A stretch of 64,000 nt of DNA from an uncultured Rhodobacterales bacterium (GTDB lineage: Bacteria; Pseudomonadota; Alphaproteobacteria; Rhodobacterales; CAZPXZ01). Position numbers and translations under genes: made by a program. Below are positions 1,268 through 18,801 of the stretch, piece by piece (positions within the stretch are counted from its first letter, which is position 1; every line of letters starts with the position of its first letter). A model generated the notes under the pieces. That model was not told the DNA's origin and searched no databases. It saw only the letters and a program-made list of their open reading frames with translations. The DNA lies in assembly GCA_964586735.1 (NCBI GenBank), contig CAZPIN010000125.1:563-64562 (forward strand), read 5' to 3'.

Positions 1268-2245
1268 ATGCAAGAACAGGCACTATCGGCAGCGTGGTCC
1301 AGGGCGCCTAGAGGGCTGACAGACATGCGTCGGCTAGCCAAGCGTATTGTAGCCAGCAGGCCCTGGCTGCAGGCAGCTATACTGTTCGGATCGAGGGCGC
1401 GCGGCACAGCGCGCCCTGACAGCGACTGGGATGTTGCGCTACTTGCGTCAGAGCGCTATAGAGACGAGGTGCTGCGCCTCGCTCCTAGAGTGCCTGCCGT
1501 GAGTTACGTACCGCTTAGCCCCAGACGGCTGCGCGAGCGATACAATAGGCTTGGTACGCTAGAGAGGTCCATAGCCAGGGATGGCGTACTGCTGGCAGGG
1601 GACTGGATCATGCCTAAATCACAGAAGAGGCAGGTTGTCTCATACCCAGACTTGGCGAACGATCTTGAGGCGTCGGCAAGCAAGATTAGTTCGGCTATCG
1701 AACGTATTCGGCGGAAGATTCCGCATCAACCTTTATTTGGAGACAACCTTCTTTGCAGCGCTACACAGGACGCGGGAGAGTTGCTGTCCAAGGCCGCATT
1801 GCTACATATGGGCATCCACCCGCCACATACCCACAATGCGCTGGAGTTGGCTGACGAGCTGCGGAAAAAACAACTCGATCATGACTGGATTGATATGATT
1901 GAGTCATTGAATGGGCTGTCAAGAGAGCGTCATGTCGCGTTCTATACTGCAGCAATACTAGAGAGTTTTGAAGATTCCCTGCACCGTCTTCACATGGTGG
2001 TGGAATTCTATATGGAAGTGGTCGAAACAATTTTGGAAAAGCGTCCCGGCATGACAGGACACTTGCTGGAAATTTGTGAAGATATTGTCCATACAGTTTC
2101 AGATCATCAGCATGCAAGCAATTGGGATCTGCTGCCAGAAGACCTAAAGCAGACTTTGCTGCAGTGGAAAGGCATGGCCGAAGGGCTGCTGGATGCGGCG
2201 GCCGCCAACAAGCGCAAAGCTGCGAAACGCCGCCGTACTCACTGA
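1268..2245 (+). CDS. Fused minimal nucleotidyltransferase (MNT) - HEPN domain protein with a helical, basic C-terminal tail
   Basis: The N-terminal 'LFGSRARGTARPDSDWDVALL' matches the pol-beta NTase signature G-S-x(n)-D-x-D. The central 'ELLSKAALLHMGIHPPHTHNALELADEL ... LSRERHVAFY' resembles HEPN (PF05168-type) helices. The 3' two-thirds is visibly AT-richer than its neighbours. Confidence 0.7.
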   Translation: MQEQALSAAWSRAPRGLTDMRRLAKRIVASRPWLQAAILFGSRARGTARPDSDWDVALLASERYRDEVLRLAPRVPAVSYVPLSPRRLRERYNRLGTLERSIARDGVLLAGDWIMPKSQKRQVVSYPDLANDLEASASKISSAIERIRRKIPHQPLFGDNLLCSATQDAGELLSKAALLHMGIHPPHTHNALELADELRKKQLDHDWIDMIESLNGLSRERHVAFYTAAILESFEDSLHRLHMVVEFYMEVVETILEKRPGMTGHLLEICEDIVHTVSDHQHASNWDLLPEDLKQTLLQWKGMAEGLLDAAAANKRKAAKRRRTH

Positions 2246-4447: not shown

Positions 4448-6202
4448 CTACACCATCACCTTGCCGGCGTCTCCCACCTCCGGCCTGTTGGTCTCGCCGC
4501 CGAGGATCATCTCGTTGTGGGCCTTGCCGGAGGGGATCATCGGATAGCAGTTTTCGGCGGGGTCGACCACGCAGTCGAACACCACCGGACCGTCGAAGGT
4601 TACCATCTCGTCGATCATCTCGTCCAGCTTGGCCGGATCATCGCAGCGAATGCCGTGGCAGCCGAACGCCTCGGCGAGCTTGACGAAGTCGGGCAGCGCC
4701 TCGGAGTAGCTGTGGGCGTAGCGCCCGCCGTGCAGCAGCTCCTGCCACTGGCGGACCATGCCGAGGTACTTGTTATTGAGGATGAACACCTTGATGGGTA
4801 GGTGGTGCTGCACGGCGGTGGACAGCTCCTGCAGTACCATCATCACCGAGGCTTCGCCGGCGACGTCGATGATCAGGCTGTCGGGATGCGCCATTTGCAC
4901 GCCGATGGCGGCCGGCAGCCCGTAGCCCATGGTGCCCAGCCCGCCGGACGTCATCCAGCGGTGCGGCTCCTCGAACGGCAGGAACTGGGCCGCCCACATC
5001 TGGTGCTGGCCCACCTCGGTGGTGATGTAGACGTCCTCGTCCTTGATGCGCTCGCGCAGCCGCTGCAGGGCGTACTGCGGCTTGACCACCTCGGTGGAGT
5101 TTTCGAAGGCCAGGCAGTCGACGGCGCGCCACTCGTCGATTCGCTTCCACCAGTCCTTGACGGCGTCGGCTTTGGTGCGCCGCCCTCCCGACTTCCACAG
5201 GGCGAGCATCCCCTCTAGAGCGTGGGCCGCGTCGCCGATCAGAGGCACGTCGACGTGGACGTTCTTGTTGATGGAGGAGGCGTCGATGTCGATGTGCACC
5301 TTCTTGGAGTGCGGGGCGAAGGCGTCGAGACGGCCGGTGATGCGGTCGTCGAAGCGGGCGCCGACGGCCAGCATGAGGTCGCACTCGTGCATGGCCAGGT
5401 TGGCCTCGTAGGTGCCGTGCATGCCCAGCATGCCCAGCCACTGGGAGTCGGAGGCGGGGTAGGCGCCCAGTCCCATCAGCGTCGAGGTGATGGGAAAGCC
5501 GGTGGCCTGGACCAGCTCGCGCAGGAGGGTCGAGGCATGACGGCCGGCATTGATGACGCCGCCGCCCGTGTAGAACAGCGGGCGCTCGGCCGACTCCATC
5601 AGCTCGACGGCCCTCTCCACGCTGGCCTGCTCGGGTCGCATGACGGGGTTGTAGCTGGGGTGGCGGATGTTGCCGGGCGGGCGGTACTGGCACTGGGCGA
5701 ACTGCACGTCCTTGGGGATGTCAACCACCACCGGACCGGGGCGGCCGGCGGTGGCCACGTAGAACGCCTCGTGCAGGGTGGTGGCGAGGCGGTCCGGGTC
5801 GCGCACCAGCCAGTTGTGCTTGGTGCAGGGGCGGGTGATGCCGACGGTGTCGGCCTCCTGGAAGGCGTCGTTGCCGATGAGGAAGGTGGGCACCTGGCCG
5901 GTGAGGCAGACGATGGGAACGGAGTCCATCAGGGCGTCGGTGAGGCCGGTGACCGCGTTGGTGGCGCCGGGGCCGGAGGTGACTAGCAGCACGCCGGGGC
6001 GTCCGGTGGAGCGGGCGTAGCCCTCGGCGGCGTGGGCGGCGCCCTGCTCGTGGCGGACGAGGACGTGGCGGATGCCGCTCTCGCCGAAGAGGGCGTCGTA
6101 GATGGGCAGCACGGCGCCGCCCGGATAGCCGAACACCACGTCGACCTGCTGGTCCTTGAGCGCGCGAATCACGGTCTCGGCGCCGGTGATGGTGTCTGTC
6201 AT
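4448..6202 (-). CDS. ilvI: Acetolactate synthase large (catalytic) subunit
   Basis: ThDP-enzyme motifs are present ('GYPGGAVLPIYDAL', 'GGLGTMGYGLPAAIG'). The ATG at 6202 ('MTDTITGAETVIRAL') is the likely start. The track ORF extends to 6274. Confidence 0.95.
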   Translation of the reverse strand: MTDTITGAETVIRALKDQQVDVVFGYPGGAVLPIYDALFGESGIRHVLVRHEQGAAHAAEGYARSTGRPGVLLVTSGPGATNAVTGLTDALMDSVPIVCLTGQVPTFLIGNDAFQEADTVGITRPCTKHNWLVRDPDRLATTLHEAFYVATAGRPGPVVVDIPKDVQFAQCQYRPPGNIRHPSYNPVMRPEQASVERAVELMESAERPLFYTGGGVINAGRHASTLLRELVQATGFPITSTLMGLGAYPASDSQWLGMLGMHGTYEANLAMHECDLMLAVGARFDDRITGRLDAFAPHSKKVHIDIDASSINKNVHVDVPLIGDAAHALEGMLALWKSGGRRTKADAVKDWWKRIDEWRAVDCLAFENSTEVVKPQYALQRLRERIKDEDVYITTEVGQHQMWAAQFLPFEEPHRWMTSGGLGTMGYGLPAAIGVQMAHPDSLIIDVAGEASVMMVLQELSTAVQHHLPIKVFILNNKYLGMVRQWQELLHGGRYAHSYSEALPDFVKLAEAFGCHGIRCDDPAKLDEMIDEMVTFDGPVVFDCVVDPAENCYPMIPSGKAHNEMILGGETNRPEVGDAGKVMV

Positions 6203-6494
6203 GTCTGGTCTCCCGCGCCGGGAGGCGGGTTGGGGAATGCGCTCGGCTGGAGTGACGGACTTGCGGAACGGCACGGCCGGCGCACGCCCTGCTCCGGGCG
6301 CGCGCTAGGTTACGACTACGACAACAATTGCCGTCCGATGCGTCATGCGTCGATCTTTCCGTTCCGCCGCGTCTCGCTGGACACGGACTCCGTTGGCGGC
6401 TAAGATAAGGTAATTTGCGGAGCGGTCAAGGCGCAGCCTGCGGAAACGTCTTGGGGGCCTAGGCGCGGGAGCGCCGAAGCCGGGAGGAAGTGGA

Positions 6495-6926
6495 ATGCGC
6501 CTGTGGAGCCTGCATCCGCGGTACCTTGATGTCCGGGGCCTCGTGGCCCTGTGGCGTGAGGCGCTTCTGGCGCAGGCGGTGCTGTGCGGGCGGACGAGGG
6601 GATATACTCGCCATCCGCAGCTGCGCCGGTTTCAGGAGCACGCCGCGCCACGGGCTGCCGTCGCCGCCTACCTGCGGAGGGTGCAGGCAGAGGCAGCCGA
6701 ACGGGGCTATAGTTTCGACGCCAGCCGCATCGAGTCGGCGAAGGGCGAAGTTGCTAGAATCGCGGTGCCCCGGGGGCAGGTGCGGTACGAGTGGGAGCAT
6801 CTGATGGCGAAACTTCGCATCCGCGACTCCGCGCGCCAGGCGCGGCTTGCGCCGCTGACGCGGCCGAGCACGCATCCGCTGTTTCGGGTGGTGCCGGGCG
6901 GCATAGCCGAGTGGGAACATCCATGA
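6495..6926 (+). CDS. Pyrimidine-dimer DNA glycosylase / endonuclease V (DenV-like) family protein
   Basis: The N-terminus 'MRLWSLHPRYLDVRGLVALWREALLAQAVL...GYTRHPQLRRF' matches the bacterial Pyr_excise-type family as I recall it. A strong RBS 'gggaggaagtgga' precedes the ATG. Confidence 0.7.
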   Translation: MRLWSLHPRYLDVRGLVALWREALLAQAVLCGRTRGYTRHPQLRRFQEHAAPRAAVAAYLRRVQAEAAERGYSFDASRIESAKGEVARIAVPRGQVRYEWEHLMAKLRIRDSARQARLAPLTRPSTHPLFRVVPGGIAEWEHP

Positions 6927-7180
6927 CCGGGATCAGAATACGGACAGAAGCTGCCCGCGTCCGACGGGCTGTCGCTGGGCACGATGGCGGGGCCTCAGCG
7001 GCGGCGCGGTCGGCGAGGGGAATGGACGCTTGCAGCGGGAGCATTGACAGGCAGGGCGGACTGTGGAAGATGCCACCGCAAACGGCAGTGGTACCGGTAA
7101 GGCCGCCGTGGGCAGGTCGCGGCGCGGTTGGAACGTACCCGCTGGAAAGCGGAACGCTGAGGTGGAGCAGGTAGAGCATC

Positions 7181-10100
7181 ATGCAGGCTGCACAGCTAGA
7201 AGGCATTTGCGGACGCCGGAGGGACGGAGACGGTCTGTCGGTACCGCGAGAGGGCATTGGCGGCGGAACTCGACAGGTGCGTCGAAAGCGAGGCGTCTGC
7301 TGGAGTCGGGGGGCACTGTGGGGAATCTGCCTGCTGATGGTGCCCGCGACGGTGCCCCTGTATGCTCCGTCCGCCGTCGCACAGACGCCCGCAGCGACGA
7401 TCGATTTTCGGCGGGTTACCGTCGACTCCCAGCCTGACGGCGAACGTTCAGCATGGGTTGGATTCTTGCTGCGAGGAGGACTCGACAATAGGCCAAGCGG
7501 TGTTACAGAGAATGACCTCAAATACGAGTGGAGGAGCGCGAGCACTGTCGATACCGGACAAGACATAAATCCACAGTTTAGTCCGATTGCTGGCGCGACT
7601 GGTCCAGCCTATAGGCTTACTTCCACCGACGACGACCATTACATTCAGCTGCGGGTTTACGTGGAAGGCGGCGATTCTTGGTATAGGAGACTGCAACGCG
7701 ACGACGGAACAGACCAAAAAATTGATACTATAACCAATCACTGTACTCGTACTGCGGACAATGATACTGAAACGGTTAATCTTACTGGCTTTACGCGCGA
7801 GCTAAATGACGAAGGAACATATAGCAACGTGTATAGAGTGGGAAACACTCTGTCTATCGAATTTACCGATAATGGAGGGCTGCAAGATATGCTGGCCGAC
7901 CGCCCTATCCCCGGCCGTACCGGGTGGACTTATGGTGACAGTGGCAACACCCACGGCCAGGGCATAGCCTACGGGTGGGAGCTGGTAGATGAAAACGGCG
8001 ACTCATTCGATCCCGCCAAGTTCCTTGGCGGAGAAGCGACATATGAAATTCCGGCAACCACCACTGAAGGCGATACGGTTGCGGGCAATAGAATCAAAGG
8101 CGCCGTTCTCTACACGGACGACTGGGGGTGCCCTGAGGTACTTGCGCAGACATCCGAAGTAGTAGTAGGCGATGAAACCACCAATAGTGACGCAACCGGT
8201 CGGCCATTGATTTTATTCAATGCCGGCAACAACGCAGGAGAGTCGGCAATCGGTATACCAGTGGAATCCGGCCAAGTGCTTAGGTATGACAGGGGAAGCA
8301 TCGATGATTCCAACGGCTGGGATGGAACGGTTCACGAGTACCAGTGGCAGTCGCAGACCAAGCCCGATACCTCCGACTGGGAAGACATTGCGGGAGCCAG
8401 CGGAGCCACCTACACCATCCCCTCAGCAACTGACGCCAACGACATATTGAGGTTCAGAATCAAGATCACTTATAGGGATGACGACTACGCTCAAACATCC
8501 ATGGAAGAGGTAGTGGAAAGCATGCCCACGGGGTACATCAACATTCCGCCAGGAGGCGCGCCGCAGATAGGAGTTACCAACAATCTTACAATGGTTGGCA
8601 ATGACATGAGCGTCGCTCCAGCCGCTGAACAAGAGTTTATTGAAATCCTGTCTGATCCGAATGGAGCCGCCGCCCCATTTGCGTACCGGTGGGAAAAATG
8701 CGCGGCAGGACAGGACTGCGGCGCGGACGGGGGCGGCTGGACGAACTTGACGAATGTTGAGGCAGACCCAGACACCACGGATACGGCGGGCCAGCAGTTC
8801 ACGGGTAGTTCATTCACGCTGCTAGTGACGCACGCGGGATACAGGTTTCGCTATATTGTTTCCTACACGGACGAGGACGGCAGCGATGAGGAGGCTGTTT
8901 CTGCCGTTTCCGAGGCGGTCAACGCCTCCGCAACCGGCTCAGTGACAATTGTGTTCAGCAGCCCCAGATACCCGACAGAAACGCCATATAGCAGGACGCC
9001 AGTGGTAGGCGAAGTCCTGCAGGCCGACACGAAAAGCATCGCTGACCTCAATGGACTGGGCGACTTCACGTACAGTTGGTTCAGGGAAGACAAGGATGGC
9101 GCTAATCGCGTGCCGATATCGGGCAGTACCCAGCCGCTCTACACGCTGCAGGACGAGGACGCCGGCAAGAAGATCTCGCTGGAGGTGCGGTTCACCGACG
9201 GGGAAGGGAACCCGGAGGAACCGGGTGCGAGCAATCCCACAGACATTGTCAACGACCCCGTCAAGGGATTTCAAGTCAATGCTGGCGCTCCTTCGGGGGC
9301 TCCGGAGTATGAAGTTGGCGGCGTGTTCGCCGACCGGTTGCAGGTATCGACAGCCAGTCTCAGGGACTTAAACGAGAATCAATTGGCGATAGCGAACAGG
9401 TTTGACCCAATCACCTGGGCATGGGCAAGGGTGAACTCTGATGGCGTGGCCACCACCGTTTCCGGCCAAATAGCAGCGGTTTACACGTTGACTCCTGAGG
9501 ACGCGGGCTTGCGCATTCGGGCGACGGCGAGCTACACGGACGAAGATGGCTTTGACGAGACAATCAGCGCCACAAGCGATGTCGTCAACGCCCGTGCATC
9601 AGGAAGTCCGACAATATCCGGCCCTGTTTCACCCGAGCCGGGCAGCGTATTGACAACTGAAATTTTGTCCGTCGTCGATAACAACGGGTTTGACCGGTCG
9701 AAAGCTATCCTAACCTGGATCCGGGTCGCGGCGGATAACATCGCCTCCGACATAGCTGGGGCGCACGGCGACACCTACACCTTGGCGGAAAACGATGCGA
9801 ACAGCAGGATTATGGTCAGGGTAGACTTCACTGACGATGACGGCTTTGCAGAATCACGGTTCAGCGCCCTCTATCCGGCTGGTACTGTTGCGGACGGCAC
9901 CTTCGCGACGGTCAATGGCCGCCCGACGGGAGCCCCGGTACTGGAAGGCTCGGCGCAGGTTGACATGATGGTCGAGGTCAATACCGACGGTATTGACGAT
10001 GCCAATGGTCTTGCTGGTTTGGAGGCGCGAGGAGGCTACGCCTATACCTGGATCCGCCTCAACGCTGATCGCACGGGTCCTGTTACGCTTGTTGGAGAGA

Positions 10101-12733
10101 ATTCTGATAGCTACACGCTGGTTAAGGATGACGAGGGGAAGCGTATTCAGGTAGTAGTAAGATTTGTTGATGACAAGGGATATGATAACGTAATACCCAG
10201 CAACCCCAGTGCGGTGGTCCAGCGCAGGGAAAACTCCGCGCCTCAAGGTCTGCCGGTAGTCTCTGCTGTGGAAAATTGCAGTTCTTCCACTTCTGCGGCT
10301 CTGAAGGTTGGTGTGGCTGTGAAAGCAAGTACGGCGGGCATCATGGATGACAACCAAATGACAACCGCTAGGTCCTCCGCAGCGTTTAGCTATCAGTGGG
10401 TGCGCCTGAATGCTGACGGCAGCAGCCCCCTCAGCATCGGCACTGATTCGGACTGCTACACGCTTCAGAAGGCGGACGAGGCAAAGAGGCTGCAGGTGGT
10501 GGTGCGCTACATCGACGACGATGGCTATGAAGAGACAGTCAGGAGTCTGCCGACAGGCTCCTCCGTGGTGCGCAGGGATCAGGTCCCGGCTACTGGTATG
10601 CTAGCTATTGTCGGCACGGCGCAGGTTGACGCGACGCTTACGGCGGATGCGTCAAGCATCGTAGATCCCGTCAACGGGCTGGATGCGGCGACAATGCAGT
10701 ATCGGTGGGAGCGGCTCGACTCTCCGAACGATCCAAACCCGGTTACGGTAGGCGAAGGCCCTAGCTATACCCCCGTCAAGGCTGACGCGCGCAGTTTCCT
10801 GCGGCTGACTGTGATCTTCCATGATGACGATGACCATCCCGAAAAGTTGAGCGTACTGTTCACTGGCCCCGACGGCGTTACTCCTGCGAGAGTCGAGCGC
10901 CGTGCCAACGCGGAAGCCACGGGTGCACCGGTTATTCGCGGGGCGGCGCGGGTAGGCGAGACGCTGGAGGCGTTTCGCGGCTCCATTGAGGATGACAACG
11001 GAGTGCCAAATGCCGGTACCTTTACCTGGCAGTGGTTCCGCGTGGACGCGAATGGCGACCGCGAGCAGATAACCGGTGCGACAAGGGACCGCTATGCCGT
11101 TACGCCCGATGACTCCGAGAAGCGGCTTATGGTGAGGGCTACGTTCGATGACCTTGATGAGTACGAGGAGTCTTTAGATAGCTCTCTCACTGGACTGGTA
11201 ACCGAAATTGCCGCGGTGCGCTCAAGTGGCCTGACCCACCTGCTCTCCGGTATGGGGCGTACTTTTTCCATTAGCCTCGTCGACGTGGTTTGGGAGCGCG
11301 TTGGCAGCTTGGAGTCGTGGAGGAGCGGACCGACGGCCTCGGCATCGATTGGCGGACGTGTCATTGACACTGGCGCCTTTACGGAAGACGACGTCGGCAG
11401 GGCAGTGGAGGAGGTCGCCGGCTTTCTAGGACTGAAGGCTGTTTCGCCAGAATTGATCGATCTGGAAGCCGGGCGGGGGACGACGTCTGGTTCTGGGCTT
11501 GACGCCTACAGCGCCTGGGCCGGGCTGCCCACTGGACGCGACCTCTTTGGCAGATCGCGAATTTCGATGCTCCTTGGCGGGGGGAAAAGATCGGATGGGG
11601 GCGGCCTGTCTATGTGGGCGCAGGGAGACATGGGCGCTTACGAGCGGGAGCGGGCGGACAGCGAATTCTCTGAGGCCAATTCCGAAGGCACAATGTTGGC
11701 TGGGCATCTGGGTTTCGAGTACGCCTCTTCCGGCGGCGGGCTGATGGGGGTCGCGCTGAGCCACTCGCTGGGAGAGGCAGAATACGCTTTCGCTGACGAT
11801 CGGCACAGTGACGCCACGGTAGATACTGCAGTGACCAGCGCCATGCCGTATCTGTATTTCCGTTCCGAAGGCGGCGCGGGCGTCTGGGCCTCTTACGGTC
11901 AGGGCAACGGCACTTTGGAGCTGGCAGACGACGTTAGTGATGTTGAAACCGACATTGCGCTGCAAACAACGGCCGCTGGTTTCCATGGTGGAGCGCTGCC
12001 CTACGGAGACGTCGCCCTTCGACTCAAGGCCGATTACTTCCGTACCGACGTTACGGCCGACGAGGTTGACGACGGAAGCAGCCTGATCGGGGTGGATACC
12101 TTCAGCTCACGGGCTCGTTTGGTTCTTGAAGGCACTGTGCAAAGTTTTTCCGATGGTGGTGGCAGAACAACAGGCAAGTTCGAGCTCGGCGCCCGTATTG
12201 ACGACGGGGACGTTGGCGAAGGAATCGGGGCGGAAGCTGCTGCCGAGGTTCGCTTTGGCAGCACGAATACGGGCCTCGAATTGCGTGGCCGGGGCAGCGT
12301 CCTGTTCTTCCACGAGCAGGAAGGGTATCGCGAGTGGGGTGCCAGCCTTGGCTTGATATACGACCCCGGCCGCAGAGGGCGAGGGGTCAGCCTGACGCTG
12401 GAACCTGCCTGGAATGCCCCCAGCACGGGTGTGGCGAGCGCCATGTGGGACACCGACTCGTTGCCGGACTACAGCGGGCAAACAGCCTCCAGTGACGACG
12501 CTTCCTTCCGGGCGAGGCTTGGATACGGCGTTGGCGCACTGCACGAGAGCGGACTGGTAACCCTCTACAGCGAGGTTGAAGACGACGATGACCGCCGCCT
12601 GCGGCTTGGCTCCGAATTTGACGGTATCGGGACAGGTTTAGGGGGGCTGCGGCTTGACCTATACGGCGAGCGGCGCGACAGCGGCGACGACCCGGAAAAC
12701 GCGGCCATGTTCAAGGGCACAATTGGCTTCTAG
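7181..12733 (+). CDS. Giant autotransporter-type surface protein (1850 aa): signal peptide, repeat-rich passenger, C-terminal beta-barrel
   Basis: Sec signal 'RRKRGVCWSRGALWGICLLMVPATVPLYAPSAVA/QT'. There are 11 degenerate ~100-140 aa repeats. The C-terminal ~390 aa has alternating beta-strand character and ends in the OMP signature '...FKGTIGF' (terminal Phe). Confidence 0.85.
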   Translation: MQAAQLEGICGRRRDGDGLSVPREGIGGGTRQVRRKRGVCWSRGALWGICLLMVPATVPLYAPSAVAQTPAATIDFRRVTVDSQPDGERSAWVGFLLRGGLDNRPSGVTENDLKYEWRSASTVDTGQDINPQFSPIAGATGPAYRLTSTDDDHYIQLRVYVEGGDSWYRRLQRDDGTDQKIDTITNHCTRTADNDTETVNLTGFTRELNDEGTYSNVYRVGNTLSIEFTDNGGLQDMLADRPIPGRTGWTYGDSGNTHGQGIAYGWELVDENGDSFDPAKFLGGEATYEIPATTTEGDTVAGNRIKGAVLYTDDWGCPEVLAQTSEVVVGDETTNSDATGRPLILFNAGNNAGESAIGIPVESGQVLRYDRGSIDDSNGWDGTVHEYQWQSQTKPDTSDWEDIAGASGATYTIPSATDANDILRFRIKITYRDDDYAQTSMEEVVESMPTGYINIPPGGAPQIGVTNNLTMVGNDMSVAPAAEQEFIEILSDPNGAAAPFAYRWEKCAAGQDCGADGGGWTNLTNVEADPDTTDTAGQQFTGSSFTLLVTHAGYRFRYIVSYTDEDGSDEEAVSAVSEAVNASATGSVTIVFSSPRYPTETPYSRTPVVGEVLQADTKSIADLNGLGDFTYSWFREDKDGANRVPISGSTQPLYTLQDEDAGKKISLEVRFTDGEGNPEEPGASNPTDIVNDPVKGFQVNAGAPSGAPEYEVGGVFADRLQVSTASLRDLNENQLAIANRFDPITWAWARVNSDGVATTVSGQIAAVYTLTPEDAGLRIRATASYTDEDGFDETISATSDVVNARASGSPTISGPVSPEPGSVLTTEILSVVDNNGFDRSKAILTWIRVAADNIASDIAGAHGDTYTLAENDANSRIMVRVDFTDDDGFAESRFSALYPAGTVADGTFATVNGRPTGAPVLEGSAQVDMMVEVNTDGIDDANGLAGLEARGGYAYTWIRLNADRTGPVTLVGENSDSYTLVKDDEGKRIQVVVRFVDDKGYDNVIPSNPSAVVQRRENSAPQGLPVVSAVENCSSSTSAALKVGVAVKASTAGIMDDNQMTTARSSAAFSYQWVRLNADGSSPLSIGTDSDCYTLQKADEAKRLQVVVRYIDDDGYEETVRSLPTGSSVVRRDQVPATGMLAIVGTAQVDATLTADASSIVDPVNGLDAATMQYRWERLDSPNDPNPVTVGEGPSYTPVKADARSFLRLTVIFHDDDDHPEKLSVLFTGPDGVTPARVERRANAEATGAPVIRGAARVGETLEAFRGSIEDDNGVPNAGTFTWQWFRVDANGDREQITGATRDRYAVTPDDSEKRLMVRATFDDLDEYEESLDSSLTGLVTEIAAVRSSGLTHLLSGMGRTFSISLVDVVWERVGSLESWRSGPTASASIGGRVIDTGAFTEDDVGRAVEEVAGFLGLKAVSPELIDLEAGRGTTSGSGLDAYSAWAGLPTGRDLFGRSRISMLLGGGKRSDGGGLSMWAQGDMGAYERERADSEFSEANSEGTMLAGHLGFEYASSGGGLMGVALSHSLGEAEYAFADDRHSDATVDTAVTSAMPYLYFRSEGGAGVWASYGQGNGTLELADDVSDVETDIALQTTAAGFHGGALPYGDVALRLKADYFRTDVTADEVDDGSSLIGVDTFSSRARLVLEGTVQSFSDGGGRTTGKFELGARIDDGDVGEGIGAEAAAEVRFGSTNTGLELRGRGSVLFFHEQEGYREWGASLGLIYDPGRRGRGVSLTLEPAWNAPSTGVASAMWDTDSLPDYSGQTASSDDASFRARLGYGVGALHESGLVTLYSEVEDDDDRRLRLGSEFDGIGTGLGGLRLDLYGERRDSGDDPENAAMFKGTIGF
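7478..11213 (+). repeat. Passenger-domain repeat array: 11 degenerate modules ending in 'Y-T-L-x3-D-x-G-x-x-I-x-V-x-V-x-(F/Y)-T-D-(D/E)-D-G'
   Basis: Anchor motifs occur at aa 144, 288, 411, 545, 654, 768, 866, 978, 1093, 1196 and 1305. Examples are 'YTLTPEDAGLRIRATASYTDEDGF', 'YTLAENDANSRIMVRVDFTDDDGF' and 'YTLVKDDEGKRIQVVVRFVDDKGY'. Confidence 0.85.
11558..12733 (+). other. Autotransporter beta-barrel translocator domain of the giant protein
   Basis: 'LSMWAQGDMGAYE...' is followed by regularly alternating aromatic/Gly strands, with terminal 'GTIGF'. Confidence 0.7.
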
Positions 12734-12915: not shown

Positions 12916-14148
12916 GTGACCGACGCGTTTGTCAGCCACCTCGAGTGCTCGGCGACCGGCCAGCGCGTCGAGGCGCGTCAGGTGCACGGCCTGTCAGAGG
13001 CAGGACGGCCGCTGCTGGTGCGCTACCACTTGGACCGCCTGAAGGACGTCTGGCCCCGTTCCAGCCTGGCAGGGGAAAGCGTTCCTGGCTTTTGGCGCTA
13101 CGCCCCGCTGCTGCCCGTGCAGGACCCCCAAAACAGAATCTCGCTGGGCGAGGTGGCGACGCCTCTCATCTCGCTTCCCGCCGCGGCCAAAGAGCGCGGG
13201 ATGGACGCGGACCGGGTGCTGGTCAAGGACGAGGGCCGCCTGCCAACCGGCTCCTTCAAGGACCGCGGCCTAGCGCTTGCAGTCTCCATGGCCCGCGAGC
13301 TGGGCCTCAAGCATCTGGCGATGCCCAGCAACGGCAACGCCGGAGCCGCACTGGCGGCCTACGCCATGCGCGCCGGGCTGCGCGCAACCGTGCTCTGCCC
13401 CGAGGACTCGCCCGACATCAACCTGCGCGAGATACAGCAGCGCGGCGCCGAGGTCTGGAAGGTGGATGGCCTCATCGATGACTGCGGAAAGATTGTACGC
13501 GAGGGGGTCAAGGAGGCTGGATGGTTCGACGTGTCGACTCTCAAGGAGCCGTATCGCATCGAGGGCAAGAAGACCATGGGACTCGAGCTCGCCGAGCAGC
13601 TGAGATGGCGGCTGCCGCAGGCCATCTTCTATCCCACGGGAGGGGGCACCGGCATGATCGGCATGTGGAAGGCGTTCCGGGAGATGATCGAGCTCGGCTG
13701 GATCGAGGGCGACCTGCCAAAGATGATCGTCGTGCAGGCCGAGGGATGCGCGCCCATCGTAAGGGCCTGGGAGGAGGGGACGGAGCACGCGGAGCGCTGG
13801 GAGGATGCGCATACCGTCGCCGCTGGCATACGCGTGCCGGCGGCCATTGGCGACGTGCTGATCCTGGGAGCGGTGCGCGAGTCGGGCGGTTTTGCGATGG
13901 CGATATCCGACGACGACCTGCTTGCAGCCCGCGACCGGGTGGCCCGCGACGAAGGACTGCTGCTGTGCCCGGAGGGCGCGGCGACCTATGTCGCCTGGCA
14001 GCGGTCTCTCGACGAGGGGCTGATCGATGGCAGCGGCCAGTCGGTGCTGTTCAACTGCGCGACGGGCCTCAAATACCCTATGCCTCCCGTAGGGCTGTCG
14101 CTTCGCCGAGACAGCGTGGACTTTGGCAGGTTTGGCGCACCGACCTGA
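12916..14148 (+). CDS. thrC: Threonine synthase family PLP enzyme
   Basis: PLP-lysine motif 'PTGSFKDRG', 'NGNAGAALAAYA' and 'TGGGTGMIG'. GTG start with RBS 'gggag'. Confidence 0.8.
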   Translation: MTDAFVSHLECSATGQRVEARQVHGLSEAGRPLLVRYHLDRLKDVWPRSSLAGESVPGFWRYAPLLPVQDPQNRISLGEVATPLISLPAAAKERGMDADRVLVKDEGRLPTGSFKDRGLALAVSMARELGLKHLAMPSNGNAGAALAAYAMRAGLRATVLCPEDSPDINLREIQQRGAEVWKVDGLIDDCGKIVREGVKEAGWFDVSTLKEPYRIEGKKTMGLELAEQLRWRLPQAIFYPTGGGTGMIGMWKAFREMIELGWIEGDLPKMIVVQAEGCAPIVRAWEEGTEHAERWEDAHTVAAGIRVPAAIGDVLILGAVRESGGFAMAISDDDLLAARDRVARDEGLLLCPEGAATYVAWQRSLDEGLIDGSGQSVLFNCATGLKYPMPPVGLSLRRDSVDFGRFGAPT

Positions 14149-14676: not shown

Positions 14677-15624
14677 CTATGCTGGAGGCGCAGCCTGCCG
14701 CCATTCAGCCCGCTCAAGCAGCGGCAGATGGCTCTTGGGATTGCCGCTCGGCCAGTCGGCCAGCCGGTTGCGAAACCACGTCCTCTGACGCTTCGCGTAC
14801 TGCGCGGTAGCGGCGATGGCGCGCTCCACTGCCTGTTCTCTGCTGATTTCGCCGTCAAGGCAGGCGGCCAGATCGCGTCCACCCAGCGGCCATCGCCCGT
14901 CCGGCACAGGCCCCGTCTCTCTTGCATTCGCCACTTCCTCCATCGCGCCGGCCTCCATCATCAGGGCAAACCGCCGCGCGATACGCCCGCGCAGTTCTTC
15001 TGCGTCAGGCGCCAGTACCATCGCCTCGGTTTCCTCAAGGCGCAGCAAAGGCGGCTCCGTGCTCTGGTGCCAGGCGGCTAGACCCTTGCCGGTGTGGCGA
15101 AGCACTTCCAGCGCCCGGGTCACCCGGCGGGGATTGTCGAGCGCCACCGCGTCCGCGGTCGCAGAATCAAGGCGGCGCAGCTCGTCGGCCAGCGAGTCCA
15201 GTCCTCGTTCGACCAGTTCGGCTTCCACCTGCCTGCGCAGATCTGCGGGGATGCGCGGTATGGGAGCGATTCCGCTGGTCAGCGCCGTGAAGTAGGCCCC
15301 CGTACCGCCTGCAATGACCGGGGGAGGAGCGTTGGATCCAGGCGGCGGTAGGACGGATTTCAGGTCGTCAAGCCAATGTCCCATGGAATAGGGCGACCGA
15401 AGCCCAACATGCCCGTACAGCAGATGCGGTACCCCCTGCATTTCCTCCTCGGATGGCCTTGCCGTGAGGATGCGCCACTCGCGGTACACCTGCATCGAGT
15501 CGGCGTTGACGACGGCGGAGCCCAGGCCGCAGGCGACTTCCACCGCCAGCGACGACTTGCCGGACGCGGTTGGGCCGGCAAGCAGGATGGCGCGCAGGGG
15601 TGGGGGGGTCACTCCACCCGCCAA
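14677..15624 (-). CDS. miaA: tRNA dimethylallyltransferase
   Basis: P-loop 'ILLAGPTASGKSSLAVEVA' and 'VNADSMQVYREWRILTARPS'. An alternative GTG start at 15612 forms a GTGA overlap with the korB stop. Confidence 0.9.
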   Translation of the reverse strand: MAGGVTPPPLRAILLAGPTASGKSSLAVEVACGLGSAVVNADSMQVYREWRILTARPSEEEMQGVPHLLYGHVGLRSPYSMGHWLDDLKSVLPPPGSNAPPPVIAGGTGAYFTALTSGIAPIPRIPADLRRQVEAELVERGLDSLADELRRLDSATADAVALDNPRRVTRALEVLRHTGKGLAAWHQSTEPPLLRLEETEAMVLAPDAEELRGRIARRFALMMEAGAMEEVANARETGPVPDGRWPLGGRDLAACLDGEISREQAVERAIAATAQYAKRQRTWFRNRLADWPSGNPKSHLPLLERAEWRQAAPPA

Positions 15625-16616
15625 GTACGCGCATGGCGTACCAAGCCAGCCACCTCCTCGAAAGGATTGCCGCCGCGGGCAGCGGTGTCCGCTGGCGTAG
15701 CCGCCGCCGAGGGGTGTACCGCCGTTTCGCGCCGGTGCAGCACACCGAGCGCCACGGGAAACGCGGGCGGCGCCAGCGAGGCCAGCAGCACCGCCAGAGT
15801 CGGGTCGGTTTCGTCATGCACTAGCAGGTCGTCCGGAGGCGAGGCCGGGTCAAATTCCATGGTCTCCATGCGCAGGGTGCCTGGCGTCAGGCGAAGTCCC
15901 CGCTGGCTGTCGCCGCCGTAAACCAGAGGCTTGCCGTGTTCCAGCAGAAGGCAGCTGTCGGCCGAGGAGGCGCGGTCGGTGAGGCTGTCAAAGGCGCCGT
16001 CATTGTAGATCGGGCAGTTCTGCAGCACTTCGACGAACGCGGCTCCGCGATGGGCGCGGGCTGCGGCGAAAACCGTCTGCAGGTGCTTCTGGTGTACGTC
16101 GACGCTGCGGGCGACGAAGGTGCCGCCCGCGCCCATAGCGTACCTGCACGGGTCCACCGGCTGGCTCTCGACGCCGCGGGGCGTGGAGGGCGTGCGCAGG
16201 CCCGGCAGCGAGGTGGGCGACGCCTGGCCTTTGGTCAACCCGTAAACCTGGTTGTTGCACAGCAGAATCTGCAGGTCGACGTTGCGCCGCAGTACGTGGA
16301 GCAGGTGGTTGCCGCCAATGCTCATGCCGTCGCCGTCGCCCGTCACGACCCATACCTCCAGGTCCGGCCGCGCCGACTTGAGGCCGGTGGCGAAGGCGGG
16401 CGCCCGCCCGTGGATAGTGTGCATGCCGTAGGTGTTCATGTAGTAGGGAAAGCGGGCGGCACAGCCTATGCCCGACACGAACACCGTCTGGTGCGGCTGC
16501 GCCCCGCCGTCGGCCAGCGCCTGGCGCATGGCCTTGAGAATGGCGTAGTCGCCGCAGCCAGGGCACCAGCGGACCTCCTGGTCCGTGGCGAACCGCTTGG
16601 CGTCCACGGCGTTCAT
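15609..16616 (-). CDS. korB: 2-oxoglutarate/2-oxoacid:ferredoxin oxidoreductase beta subunit
   Basis: 'RWCPGCGDYAILKAMRQAL' and the TPP-binding 'VVTGDGDGMSIGGNHLLH'. It has an ATGA overlap with korA. Confidence 0.9.
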   Translation of the reverse strand: MNAVDAKRFATDQEVRWCPGCGDYAILKAMRQALADGGAQPHQTVFVSGIGCAARFPYYMNTYGMHTIHGRAPAFATGLKSARPDLEVWVVTGDGDGMSIGGNHLLHVLRRNVDLQILLCNNQVYGLTKGQASPTSLPGLRTPSTPRGVESQPVDPCRYAMGAGGTFVARSVDVHQKHLQTVFAAARAHRGAAFVEVLQNCPIYNDGAFDSLTDRASSADSCLLLEHGKPLVYGGDSQRGLRLTPGTLRMETMEFDPASPPDDLLVHDETDPTLAVLLASLAPPAFPVALGVLHRRETAVHPSAAATPADTAARGGNPFEEVAGLVRHARTWRVE

Positions 16617-18493
16617 GAGTCCAGCATCCCGGCGATCGCGTCGCCGATTTCCCGCGCCAGAAACGGGCTTCCCGCTACCTTGTTGAAGGGGGTGATCCTC
16701 CGCGCAAGCCTTGCCGCCAGCACCGCCTGAAGCTGGCCGGCGTTGTTTTCGGGCAGCAGCACCTGCCCGAAGCCGTCGAGCAGTTCTTCAAGGTTTTCGG
16801 GCAGGGGACTGAGATGGCGCAGGTGGATGTGGCTTACTTCCTGTCCCGCCGCCCGCGCCCGCAGCACCGCAACCTGAATTGAACCGAACGTCGACCCCCA
16901 GCCCAGCACCGCGAGCTTGCCCGAGGTTTCGCCGAGCGCCGGCGCGGCGGGCGGCACGCCGATGCTGACGGCGGCGGTCTTGGCCACGCGAATCTCCGTC
17001 ATGCGCTGATGGTTGGCCGGGTCGTAGGAGACCCTTCCCGTCTTCTCGTCGCGTTCCAGTCCGCCTAGCCGGTGCTCGAATCCGGGCGTGCCCGGCAGGT
17101 GCCAGTCGCGGACGAAGGTCTCGGCGTCGCGCTCGAACATCGCCTCGGGATCCTGACCGCGCCTCGGCCTGAACGCCAGCTCCTCGATATCGCCCGCCTC
17201 CGGTATCCGCCAGGGCTCCGCCGCGTTGCCGATATAGCCGTCGGCCAGAAGCATAACCGGCGTCATGTGGCATACGGCGATGCGCGCCGCCTCGATGGCG
17301 GCGTCGAAGCAGTCGGCGGGACTCGTCGCCGCGACCACCGGTATGGGCGCGTCGCCGCTGCGTCCGTACAGCGCCAGAAACAGGTCCGACTGCTCCGCCT
17401 TGGTGGGCATGCCCGTGGAGGGACCGGCCCTCTGCATGTCCACCACCAGCAGCGGCAGCTCGGCGGCGACGGCAAATCCCAGCGCCTCGCTCATGAGGGC
17501 GATTCCCGGACCGGAGCTGGCCGTGGCGGCGAGGGCTCCGCCAAAGGAGGCGCCGATGGCCGCGCACACCGCGCCAATCTCGTCCTCCGCCTGAAACGTG
17601 GTCACGCCTTCCTCCTTGCCCTCCATGCCCGCCAGATGGTGGAGGATGGGCGATGCCGGGGTGATGGGGTAGGAGGCGAAATACAGCGGCAGGCCGGAGA
17701 TTCTGGCGGCGGCCGCCAGCCCCAGCGACAGCGCCTGGGTGCCGCTGACCGATCGGTACTCGCCGGGGCGCATGGCCGCCGGGGCGATGTCGTACGGGGC
17801 GGCGGCCTGCGGCATCTCCAGCGTTTCGCCGTAGGCATGGCCCGCGCGCAGCGCGGCGAGATTGGGCTCCACCGCCTCGGGCATGCGGGCGAACCGGGCG
17901 CGGATGTCCTCGACGGCGCTGTCGAGATCGCGCCCGAACAGCCACAGGGTCAGTCCCAGCGCCCACATGTTGCGCGACAGCAGCGCCTTCTTGCGGCCCA
18001 GATTCCAGGATTCGACCGCTGCCAGCGTTAGGGCGGAAACGTCCGCCTCGACCACCTGATAGCCGTCCAGCGCGCCGCTGCCGCGGGGGTCCTCGTCGTA
18101 GCATGCCCGCTTCCAAGCCCGCTCGCTGAATCCGGCGCTGTCGAGAATCAGCACGCCGCCCTCGCGCACGTCCTTGAGGTGCACCGCCAGCGCCGCGGCG
18201 TTGAGAGCCACCAGCACGTCGGGCTGGTCGCCGTGGGTGAAGATCATGGTGTGGCCGAGATTGATGGAGAAGGCCGAGACGCCCGCCAGGCTGCCGGCGG
18301 GGGCGCGGATCTCCGCCGGGAAGTCGGGGAAGGTGGCGAAGTCGTTGCCGTAGTCGGCGACGGTGTCGGTGAAGACCGACCCGATGGTCTGGATGCCGTC
18401 GCCCGAATCGCCGGCGAAGCGCACCCGCACGAAGTCGATGCCGGGATGCAGCGGGACGCCCTGGGTAGCGTCGGTCGGCGGGATGTAGTTCAT
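16613..18493 (-). CDS. korA: 2-oxoglutarate/2-oxoacid:ferredoxin oxidoreductase alpha subunit
   Basis: 'VRFAGDSGDGIQTIGSVF' and 'ASYPITPASPILHHLA'. The ATG at 18493 ('MNYIPPTD') is the likely start. The track ORF is over-extended to 18718. Confidence 0.9.
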   Translation of the reverse strand: MNYIPPTDATQGVPLHPGIDFVRVRFAGDSGDGIQTIGSVFTDTVADYGNDFATFPDFPAEIRAPAGSLAGVSAFSINLGHTMIFTHGDQPDVLVALNAAALAVHLKDVREGGVLILDSAGFSERAWKRACYDEDPRGSGALDGYQVVEADVSALTLAAVESWNLGRKKALLSRNMWALGLTLWLFGRDLDSAVEDIRARFARMPEAVEPNLAALRAGHAYGETLEMPQAAAPYDIAPAAMRPGEYRSVSGTQALSLGLAAAARISGLPLYFASYPITPASPILHHLAGMEGKEEGVTTFQAEDEIGAVCAAIGASFGGALAATASSGPGIALMSEALGFAVAAELPLLVVDMQRAGPSTGMPTKAEQSDLFLALYGRSGDAPIPVVAATSPADCFDAAIEAARIAVCHMTPVMLLADGYIGNAAEPWRIPEAGDIEELAFRPRRGQDPEAMFERDAETFVRDWHLPGTPGFEHRLGGLERDEKTGRVSYDPANHQRMTEIRVAKTAAVSIGVPPAAPALGETSGKLAVLGWGSTFGSIQVAVLRARAAGQEVSHIHLRHLSPLPENLEELLDGFGQVLLPENNAGQLQAVLAARLARRITPFNKVAGSPFLAREIGDAIAGMLDS

Positions 18494-18801
18494 GGGTTGC
18501 CTCTGACCTCGGCGGCGCCGCGGACGGGCGTCGCTCGCGGCGCTCTTTGCTACCGCGCCCTGTACCCAAGGTAGTGCAAAACCACGCATGATTCCGCGCG
18601 CATGCCTTGCCGGAGGCTTCCGACATAGCCGGCCGCCGCGGTTTGGCAATGCTGGATTGCCGCAGAGTGCCTGTCCAGTCTGCCGCTTGCCAAAGCCGCA
18701 TACCGCCTTAAGGGGCAAACGCAGGTACTGGCTACGATGAATTGGCGCCAGTCAAGACTACACTGTTCCGGCGAAAGCGACTCGCGCGTTTCGGGACTGC
18801 C

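Follow-up and report, generated by a model that had tools for sequence, protein, structure and literature searches.

Tandem Ig-like domains on an unnamed C-terminal barrel: a candidate surface protein of an uncultured alphaproteobacterium

The 64,000-nucleotide stretch of contig CAZPIN010000125.1 (assembly GCA_964586735.1) from an uncultured Rhodobacterales bacterium, which we call the window, carries one very large gene close to its ilv and thrC genes, and this gene raises three questions: what the repeats of the encoded protein are, how such a protein might reach the cell surface and why its DNA differs from that of its surroundings. A preliminary description made from the sequence alone had seen in it an autotransporter with 11 copies of an unassigned repeat and an AT-richer 5′ third. 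We find it fairly probable that the gene encodes a self-contained, autotransporter-like outer-membrane protein that presents a surface adhesin rod of about 11–12 immunoglobulin-like (Ig) domains with a hypervariable tip. The analysis shows the domain composition, the predicted folds, the family sizes, the nucleotide composition, the synteny and the divergence gradient, whereas surface exposure, the route of translocation, the adhesin role and the origin of the gene are inferred.

The passenger is a chain of Ig-like domains

A hidden Markov model (HMM) of the repeat, started from four clear copies and refined in successive searches of the protein itself, converged on exactly 11 units with domain E-values from 7e-16 to 3e-35. 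Units R1–R6 comprise amino acids (aa) 96–172, 250–328, 351–453, 474–580, 598–690 and 704–802, and units R7–R11 aa 806–900, 915–1013, 1031–1128, 1137–1230 and 1246–1340. The 1850-aa open reading frame (ORF) and the 11 copies described before were confirmed, while the unit length had to be corrected from about 100–140 aa to about 95–105 aa. The consensus motif quoted for the repeat is seen in the repeat alignment, and the early modules are indeed the more divergent ones, as R1 and R2 cover just part of the HMM and R3 and R4 contain insertions. Between R1 and R2, aa 173–249 show the hairpin motif LSIEFTDNGG and give no match to the repeat HMM; this segment may be a degenerate twelfth unit. The units share only 14–40% pairwise identity, with no repeat visible at the DNA level; they are old, diverged domains and did not arise by recent duplication. 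A search for tandem DNA repeats or phase-variation tracts within or 5′ of the gene returned only trivial 2–4-copy matches, and no second copy of the repeat or of the C-terminal barrel module was found elsewhere in the 64-kb window.

The repeat can be assigned to named families. Pfam IG_AIR9 (PF23197) matches the protein in 5 stretches with E = 8.5e-25 and 86.9 bits (cutoff 27.5), with sub-segments passing as well, and SCAB-Ig (PF16709) matches with E = 1.1e-16 and 61.1 bits (cutoff 27.6). Both models overlap on the same residues, which points to two related families and not to two separate domains. The NCBIfam model of the ZirU family (NF040485) reaches 61.4 bits (E = 1.3e-16), below its curated cutoff of 100, and spans two consecutive repeats (aa 1129–1320 against positions 15–209 of 210), so that the protein has its domain type in common with ZirU but is no ZirU orthologue. 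With the repeat profile as query against the PDB sequences, the Ig domain of plant SCAB1 (4dix) was found at E = 4.5e-5. A homology search among large bacterial proteins returned 75, of which 74 contain an IG_AIR9-type domain in 1–21 copies, usually combined with FN3, Calx-beta, LRR or cadherin-like modules. The repeat is a known, widely distributed Ig-like module (AIR9 A9/SCAB/ZirU-type), ordinary once recognised. IG_AIR9 and SCAB-Ig are named after intracellular, cytoskeletal proteins of eukaryotes, the plant proteins AIR9 and SCAB1 (PMC8625193). With these the window repeat shares the predicted beta-sandwich and an invariant Trp, whereas here the domain is a presumably secreted bacterial repeat with the conserved acidic loops I-x-D-x-D-G and F-T-D-D-x-G. 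Nothing specific describing bacterial A9 domains or the barrel family discussed below was found in the literature.

As had been suggested in the preliminary description, consecutive modules were modelled and compared with solved structures. The R8–R9 tandem, predicted by AlphaFold2 on a 36-sequence alignment of repeat pairs, forms two all-beta modules, both beta-sandwiches, with a mean predicted local distance difference test score (pLDDT) of 94.2. In a Foldseek search of the PDB the top matches to this model were FN3/Ig tandems such as those of titin and cytokine receptors, and the Salmonella adhesin SiiE was included among the hits. The earlier statement that the repeats are neither of the pertactin-type beta-helix nor of the RTX type holds; there is no HemolysinCabind match in the protein, which has a Sec-type leader and a C-terminal barrel instead, whereas RTX adhesins of type I secretion combine GGxGxD nonapeptide repeats with a C-terminal secretion signal and have no Sec leader.

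The TDDDG motif sits in the tight hairpin by which the final two strands of the modelled domain are joined (in R8: RIQVVVRFV, DDKGY, DNVIP). The loop connecting strands B and C contains another conserved acidic motif, I-x-D-x-D-G. Going by general Ig topology, both acidic loops would be located at one pole of the domain beside the junction to the preceding domain, and a putative Ca2+ site at the domain junction is therefore plausible. The passenger as a whole is strongly acidic, with 199 D+E against 97 K+R and a net charge of −102. Long acidic chains of tandem beta-sandwiches with acidic loops are also found in SiiE, in LapA/Bap-type adhesins and in BapP. Most giant Ca2+-dependent adhesins of this kind are secreted by type I systems, carry RTX or retention modules and lack a fused barrel, whereas the window protein has a Sec leader and a barrel. 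BapP is Sec-dependent as well, with an undefined route across the outer membrane (PMC12153261).

A leader, a helix and a barrel of an unnamed family

How would such a chain leave the cell? The N-terminus of the protein could only be judged once the start of the gene was settled, for which a single orthologous locus from a Logan assembly (run SRR26493825, referred to as L001) was available. Its leader, MQAAQL..., is in frame, and an SD-like (Shine–Dalgarno-like) GGTGGAG upstream of it is identical to that of the window. L001 offers no alternative start 5′ of the hydrophobic core, the next start codon being located within the core, and the ATG at 7181 is the sole start common to both loci that leaves the hydrophobic h-region whole. 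Since the orthologue shares the in-frame leader and the SD-like element without any usable alternative, the ATG at 7181 is very probably the true start. Both public gene calls are 5′-truncated and have lost leader and signal peptide: the NCBI call (P0001, 1614 aa) starts at M237 and the Logan call for the orthologue (P0002, 1741 aa) 87 codons into the true ORF. The late starts concern 7181–7891 in the window and 1054–1314 in L001, and it seems that an AT-rich 5′ region in a GC-rich genome misleads gene callers. The leader, 64% identical between the two loci, was interpreted by inspection as a Sec signal peptide carrying a long N-terminal extension; it gave no match to the Pfam ESPR model. A scan for promoters and terminators returned sites no more numerous than in shuffled sequence.

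For the last ~510 aa no match was obtained in Pfam at E ≤ 10, in NCBIfam at E ≤ 1 or in the PDB with phmmer. It is this segment, and not the repeat, that lacks an assignment. AlphaFold2, run on a 16-sequence alignment, gave in this order a 38-residue helix, about 80 residues of low confidence and about 18 long antiparallel strands (aa ~1475–1849), with a mean pLDDT of 65.9 and values of 70–90 over most of the sheet. The strands were counted from the DSSP string together with a crude hydrophobic-periodicity check, in which the dyad hydrophobicity of the family alignment revealed at least 14 amphipathic segments, all coinciding with AlphaFold2 strands; the same count on E. coli autotransporter controls gave 13 segments for 12 true strands. 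Foldseek matched the model exclusively to outer-membrane barrels. The template modelling (TM) score on the query was highest for 22-stranded TonB-dependent receptors (0.41–0.45), while the autotransporter barrels of BrkA and EspP were found with E = 3e-6 to 2.5e-5 and a TM score on the target of 0.53–0.56, covering about a third of the query barrel (TM on query about 0.31–0.32). TamA and BamA were weak matches (TM on query 0.26–0.30). The protein ends in F-K-G-T-I-G-F, that is with alternating hydrophobic residues and an aromatic last residue as in the beta-signal of substrates of the barrel assembly machinery (BAM).

A phmmer-type search with the C-terminus identified 16 relatives with 23–32% identity and E-values down to 2e-29, aligned over residues ~100–510 of the segment. 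Some of them stand alone as proteins of 305–490 aa, in others Calx-beta or Cache domains precede the module, and a few also touch OMP_b-brl, a generic family. Clusters at 50% identity from public data were then searched exhaustively with a profile of these 16 sequences, and at least 10,714 cluster representatives were matched at E ≤ 1e-3, with 6,120 still found at E ≤ 1e-30. Of the best 150 members, 128 have the module at their very C-terminus and 143 end in W or F; the family proteins listed range from ~500 to 5,500 aa. Of 46 typical members whose passengers were looked at, 38 carry Calx-beta; FN3, SWM repeats, choice-of-anchor R and Cache also occur, and A9/ZirU-type Ig passengers are occasional. 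Common to the family are 27 invariant columns and a strikingly conserved helix motif, P-x-AWLARFGRTVA-x-QVLDAVE-x-R, which has degenerated to LSGMGRTFSISLVDVVWERV in the window protein, where the predicted helix lies ~80 low-confidence residues before the first strand. On these sequence features the window C-terminus belongs to an unnamed helix-plus-barrel family that is almost always C-terminal. Pfam and NCBIfam hold no model of the barrel family itself, profile searches of the PDB found no solved relative, and a tblastn search of 72,556 plasmids found no member. The two members with NCBI names are both called 'hypothetical protein' and come from metagenome-assembled genomes.

The architecture resembles that of the classical type Va autotransporters such as Ag43, EspP and BrkA, with the same order of signal peptide, passenger, alpha-helix and C-terminal barrel, an aromatic last residue and no partner translocator gene; none adjoins the gene here, in L001 or beside the relative P0084. 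The long N-extended leader is functionally reminiscent of the ESPR, and the first barrel strands of the family are weakly and locally similar to the autotransporter model TIGR01414 (autotrans_barl). Partial matches to this model occur in 8 of the 16 closest relatives and in 2 of the 46 typical members, always at its positions ~158–242 of 432 and with 12–21 bits around a cutoff of 16 bits. The matched region corresponds to the first two or three strands of the barrel, and the same short region is aligned by hhalign. In our view the module is related to autotransporter barrels only distantly and locally, and is in other respects distinct and probably of larger size.

An ordinary type Va autotransporter, whose 12-stranded beta-domain has merely diverged beyond the reach of sequence models, would account for the signal peptide, the N-terminal passenger, the helix before the barrel and the C-terminal F, and it would agree with the Foldseek matches to BrkA and EspP and with TIGR01414 touching half of the closest relatives. 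However, these TIGR01414 matches span only ~80 of 432 positions, and type Va barrels have 12 strands in ~280 aa, whereas the beta region here extends over ~390 aa with ~18 AlphaFold2 strands and at least 14 amphipathic segments by a measure that counts 13 for 12. On the query, the TonB-dependent receptors outscore BrkA and EspP, and the passenger consists of Ig-like beta-sandwiches instead of the typical beta-helix. The classical type Va barrel was also tried as a candidate in all sequence tests (Pfam, NCBIfam, phmmer and profiles against the PDB, hhalign), and all were negative for the window barrel. We consider an ordinary type Va protein improbable. The term autotransporter used in the preliminary description thus suits the architecture but not the classical type Va sense.

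The details of these tests also count against our own reading of an autotransporter-like protein, as do several other observations. PF03797 and TIGR01414 did not match the window barrel even at E ≤ 1 to 10, neither with the whole protein nor with the isolated C-terminus; hhalign against the E. coli type Va barrels of Ag43, YfaL, YpjA and YcgV gave a probability of 0.7–0.8% with both the 16- and the 166-sequence profile; and family profiles found no solved autotransporter barrel in the PDB even at E ≤ 10. The confidence of the barrel model is just moderate and its alignment shallow, and the ~80 low-confidence residues that separate the helix from the first strand have no counterpart in type Va. 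In addition, some family members carry Cache domains, so that the N-terminal part might stay in the periplasm. Cache domains usually are periplasmic sensors.

This last point leads to a second possibility, in which the Ig region is not exported at all and the barrel acts as a channel or anchor with a large periplasmic N-terminal scaffold, as in BamA, LptD or usher-type proteins. A predicted barrel larger than that of type Va, the potential plug formed by a long low-confidence stretch ahead of it, the TonB-dependent receptors as top Foldseek matches on the query and the Cache domains N-terminal to the barrel in some members all would fit. On the other hand, the passengers of the family (Calx-beta, FN3, cadherin-like, SWM, Ig) are of surface-adhesin types, a hypervariable tip next to a conserved barrel and an acidic passenger are both what is typically seen in exposed proteins, Ig proteins of the ZirU type are known to travel as cargo of type V systems, and Pfam finds neither POTRA nor another known periplasmic module. 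Retention in the periplasm appears unlikely to us, about as unlikely as an ordinary type Va protein.

Other branches of type V secretion were compared as well. In type Ve (intimin, invasin, and ZirT with its cargo ZirS/ZirU) passenger or cargo likewise consists of tandem Ig-superfamily domains that form an adhesin-like rod, but the barrel is N-terminal there and the order therefore opposite to the N-terminal repeats and C-terminal barrel of the window protein, in which Pfam gave no match to an intimin/invasin barrel or to LysM. ZirS and ZirU are Ig-superfamily proteins exported via the type Ve barrel of ZirT (PMC4943183). They represent a precedent for this Ig type using a type V route, although the ZirT barrel is N-terminal and a separate protein. 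POTRA, Omp85 and patatin were searched with Pfam with regard to type Vd (PlpD-like) and type Vb (TpsB) proteins, and none matched. Proteins of types Vb and Vd have one or more POTRA domains before a 16-stranded Omp85 barrel. By its predicted size the barrel family would stand apart from all type V subclasses described so far.

Composition, locus and origin of the gene

The preliminary description had also reported an AT-richer 5′ third and proposed a foreign origin or a mosaic gene. Sliding-window GC and codon-usage analysis, which had been recommended there, showed that the anomaly is real, that it sits at synonymous sites and that it extends over the whole gene. The GC content is 0.529 over 7440–8500 and 0.435 over 7681–7880, whereas 300-nt windows outside the gene average 0.669 ± 0.045, so that the minimum of the gene lies at z = −4.3. 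The AT-rich 5′ third is thus correct, but it is not the only affected part: the mean GC of the whole gene, 0.585, is below the local level, and its GC content at third codon positions (GC3) amounts to 0.64, compared to 0.82 as the median of the window and 0.84–0.93 in the adjacent ilv and thrC genes, falling to 0.48 at codons 101–250. The whole gene, and not the 5′ third alone, is compositionally atypical. A second, shallower dip (GC 0.51–0.54) is located at ~9950–10400 in R8 and the start of R9; the GC3 of R8 is 0.55 in the window and 0.67 in the orthologue.

In order to split the GC deficit, the protein was re-coded with the codon usage of the typical genes of the window. For codons 91–440 the deficit of 0.153 is composed of 0.036 from amino-acid composition and 0.117 from synonymous codon choice, and for the whole gene the deficit of 0.094 is composed of 0.010 and 0.084, respectively, which means that synonymous codon choice makes up about 76–90% of it. 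As the deficit is mostly synonymous, amino-acid composition fails to explain the GC shift. Of the two findings that the preliminary description had named as speaking together against it, the repeat did turn out to belong to a named family (IG_AIR9/SCAB-Ig), while a purely compositional cause of the GC shift was not found.

Only one other place in the 64 kb is comparably AT-rich, an unrelated gene at 1268–2245 (+) which encodes a 325-aa fusion of a Polbeta/NTP_transf_2 nucleotidyltransferase domain with a HEPN domain. No other gene in the window has a GC3 as low as this one (0.56), and the local GC falls to 0.447. This is a second compositionally foreign gene, probably of a toxin–antitoxin or defence-like kind.

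The neighbours of the large gene are as given before, a DenV-type pyrimidine-dimer glycosylase (Pyr_excise) and ilvC, ilvH and ilvI upstream and threonine synthase downstream (Table 1). In 34 of 80 alphaproteobacterial loci, miaA lies ~200–250 bp upstream of ilvI in the order miaA-ilvI-ilvH-ilvC. In the window as well as in L001, miaA and ilvI are separated by a block of 8.4 kb in which Pyr_excise, the large gene and thrC run on the opposite strand.

Table 1. Coordinates of the gene, its parts and its neighbours (window positions)
Feature	Position	Strand	Remark
Complete ORF, 1850 aa plus stop, ATG start	7181..12733	+	start backed by leader kept in orthologue L001
Extended leader and signal peptide	7181..7381	+	aa 1–43 charged; hydrophobic core ~aa 44–62; A-V-A-Q ~aa 67
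AT-richest stretch, GC about 0.47–0.55	7440..8750	+	spans membrane-distal R1–R3 and part of R4
R1, partial HMM match	about 7493..7678	+	self-HMM
aa 173–249, possible degenerate 12th unit	7697..7927	+	inspection; no HMM match
R2, partial	about 7937..8164	+	self-HMM
R3	about 8234..8539	+	self-HMM
R4, ~20-aa insertion	about 8636..8920	+	self-HMM
R5	8972..9250	+	self-HMM; best IG_AIR9 stretch aa 627–668
R6	9290..9586	+	self-HMM
R7	about 9596..9868	+	self-HMM
R8	9923..10219	+	self-HMM; AlphaFold2 model, pLDDT 94
R9	about 10274..10558	+	self-HMM; AlphaFold2 model
R10	about 10589..10867	+	self-HMM
R11	10916..11200	+	self-HMM; best SCAB-Ig stretch aa 1273–1318
Predicted long alpha-helix aa 1342–1379, LSGMGRTFSISLVDVVWERV	11204..11317	+	AlphaFold2, segment residues 2–39, pLDDT 65–78
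Variable low-confidence linker aa 1380–1459	11318..11557	+	pLDDT <50; poorly conserved in family alignment
Predicted outer-membrane beta-barrel aa 1460–1850, ~18 predicted strands, ends ...AMFKGTIGF	11558..12730	+	
Pyr_excise (DenV-type pyrimidine-dimer glycosylase)	6495..6926	+	in block wedged between ilvI and miaA
Threonine synthase (thrC)	12916..14148	+	in same wedged block
ilvI (acetohydroxyacid synthase, AHAS, large subunit)	4448..6274	−	usual miaA neighbour in Alphaproteobacteria
miaA	14677..15624	−	about 8.4 kb away from ilvI here

L001 is the sole orthologue found; no further one was present in the GTDB genomes, searched with the barrel, or in JGI metagenomes. The comparison of the two loci reveals a gradient of divergence along the protein. 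Neighbouring genes are 79–91% identical with synonymous divergence (dS) of 0.36–0.56, the barrel is 80% identical with a ratio of nonsynonymous to synonymous divergence (dN/dS) of 0.16, the mid repeats R4–R11 are 52–78% identical and the mature N-terminal tip (aa 68–328) only 25–42%, with dS saturated at >2, an estimate that is unreliable as the alignment at this identity is poor. The orthologue has the same low-GC3 5′ region, differing in details. Between these two orthologues, the membrane-distal tip is hypervariable and the fastest-evolving part of the protein.

The foreign-origin reading, which the preliminary description had already put forward along with that of a mosaic gene, agrees with the GC3 values, with the separation of miaA from ilvI and with the way in which divergence changes along the two orthologues, and on these grounds the gene was probably acquired from a lower-GC source before the two host lineages split. 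Since then the distal third would either have been exchanged through recombination or have diverged under AT-biased mutation and diversifying or relaxed selection, two possibilities between which a comparison of just two sequences does not decide. If the tip was swapped, the conserved leader may be the upstream crossover point. Two points speak against an acquisition. The wedged neighbours Pyr_excise (GC3 0.78) and thrC (0.84) are normal, so that the block is not uniformly foreign, and because both are near-normal in GC3 it may have come together stepwise. Furthermore, no donor lineage was found, in a search with aa 68–350 that was uninformative, as it missed even the identical P0001 (aa 237–350).

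The AT-rich 5′ third could instead have arisen because this part evolved fast and with little constraint: AT-biased mutation in a GC-rich genome would draw a weakly expressed gene towards AT where constraint is lowest. In agreement with this, the dip is present in both orthologues at differing positions and depths (GC3 of R1 0.53 vs 0.66, next to the values for R8 given above), lower orthologue identity accompanies lower GC3 across the regions, identity climbs gradually from R2 to R4 without a single step, and no donor or closer relative of the segment turned up in the unreliable search. Yet the conserved barrel, with its low dN/dS, has a GC3 of just 0.68 and is thus also well below the ilv and thrC genes, from which it follows that low constraint alone does not explain the gene-wide deficit. 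The location of the gene at a synteny break speaks in the same direction, and the tip dS, compared to that of the neighbours, favours allele replacement, an argument weakened by the poor alignment. We regard weak constraint as a possible explanation of the 5′ third, though the less probable one. With acquisition as the preferred reading, the locus represents a clean case in which a conserved pair of core genes is interrupted by a putative adhesin gene of foreign composition whose tip is hypervariable.

Some further features of the locus are worth recording. An 83-aa arginine-rich ORF at 6923–7174 (+) overlaps the stop codon of Pyr_excise (ATGA) and ends 6 nt before the ATG at 7181. It is open with the same boundaries at 802–1047 of L001, and the patches SID..G.LWKM.PQT and G.LRWS are common to both, with a DNA identity of only 57–73% between the loci and no family match; it may represent a small gene on a shared transcript, or else an ORF that arose by chance in GC-rich DNA. 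Directly downstream of miaA, two adjoining 2-oxoacid:ferredoxin oxidoreductase genes (TPP_enzyme_C; POR_N and POR) at 15609–18718 (−) are kept in L001. The AHAS large subunit of the host is at most 71% identical to any of 185,579 GTDB species representatives, and its matches are all Alphaproteobacteria; the host is a poorly sampled, diderm alphaproteobacterial lineage. The locus-tag style and the domain repertoire of the hits had suggested a sponge symbiont as the source, which we do not claim.

A possible export route and its meaning

Taken as an autotransporter-like surface protein, the window protein would be exported as follows. The leader with its Sec signal peptide (aa 1–67) would bring the protein to the periplasm, where the C-terminal ~390 aa would fold as an outer-membrane beta-barrel and be inserted by BAM through the terminal aromatic beta-signal. 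The conserved helix upstream of the barrel would connect it to the N-terminal passenger, and the Ig passenger would pass in threaded form to the surface, where its domains would fold one after another, like those of the Ig-type passengers of type Ve. We infer from this model a surface-exposed, strongly acidic rod of ~40–45 nm that might act as an adhesin, with the membrane-distal tip as the part that would bind a partner.

Beyond this single protein, we tentatively suggest that the helix-plus-barrel module could define an undescribed and very widespread type-V-like class of surface display, which would be characterised by more than 12 strands (~18 predicted), the AWLARFGRTVA helix and possibly a plug-like linker, and would be specialised for the export of chains of independently folding beta-sandwiches (Calx-beta, FN3, Ig). 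Its members occur almost entirely in uncultured bacteria and have so far been annotated as hypothetical. In that case the window protein would be the first examined member with an all-A9-Ig passenger. For annotation the practical consequence is that such adhesins are missed in genomes, and that AT-rich 5′ ends give truncated gene calls. The lead worth following is the barrel family, which is abundant, unannotated and without a solved relative. If its size of more than 12 strands and the conserved helix hold, it would extend the repertoire of type V-like secretion and, if true, provide an export route for pre-foldable beta-sandwich chains.

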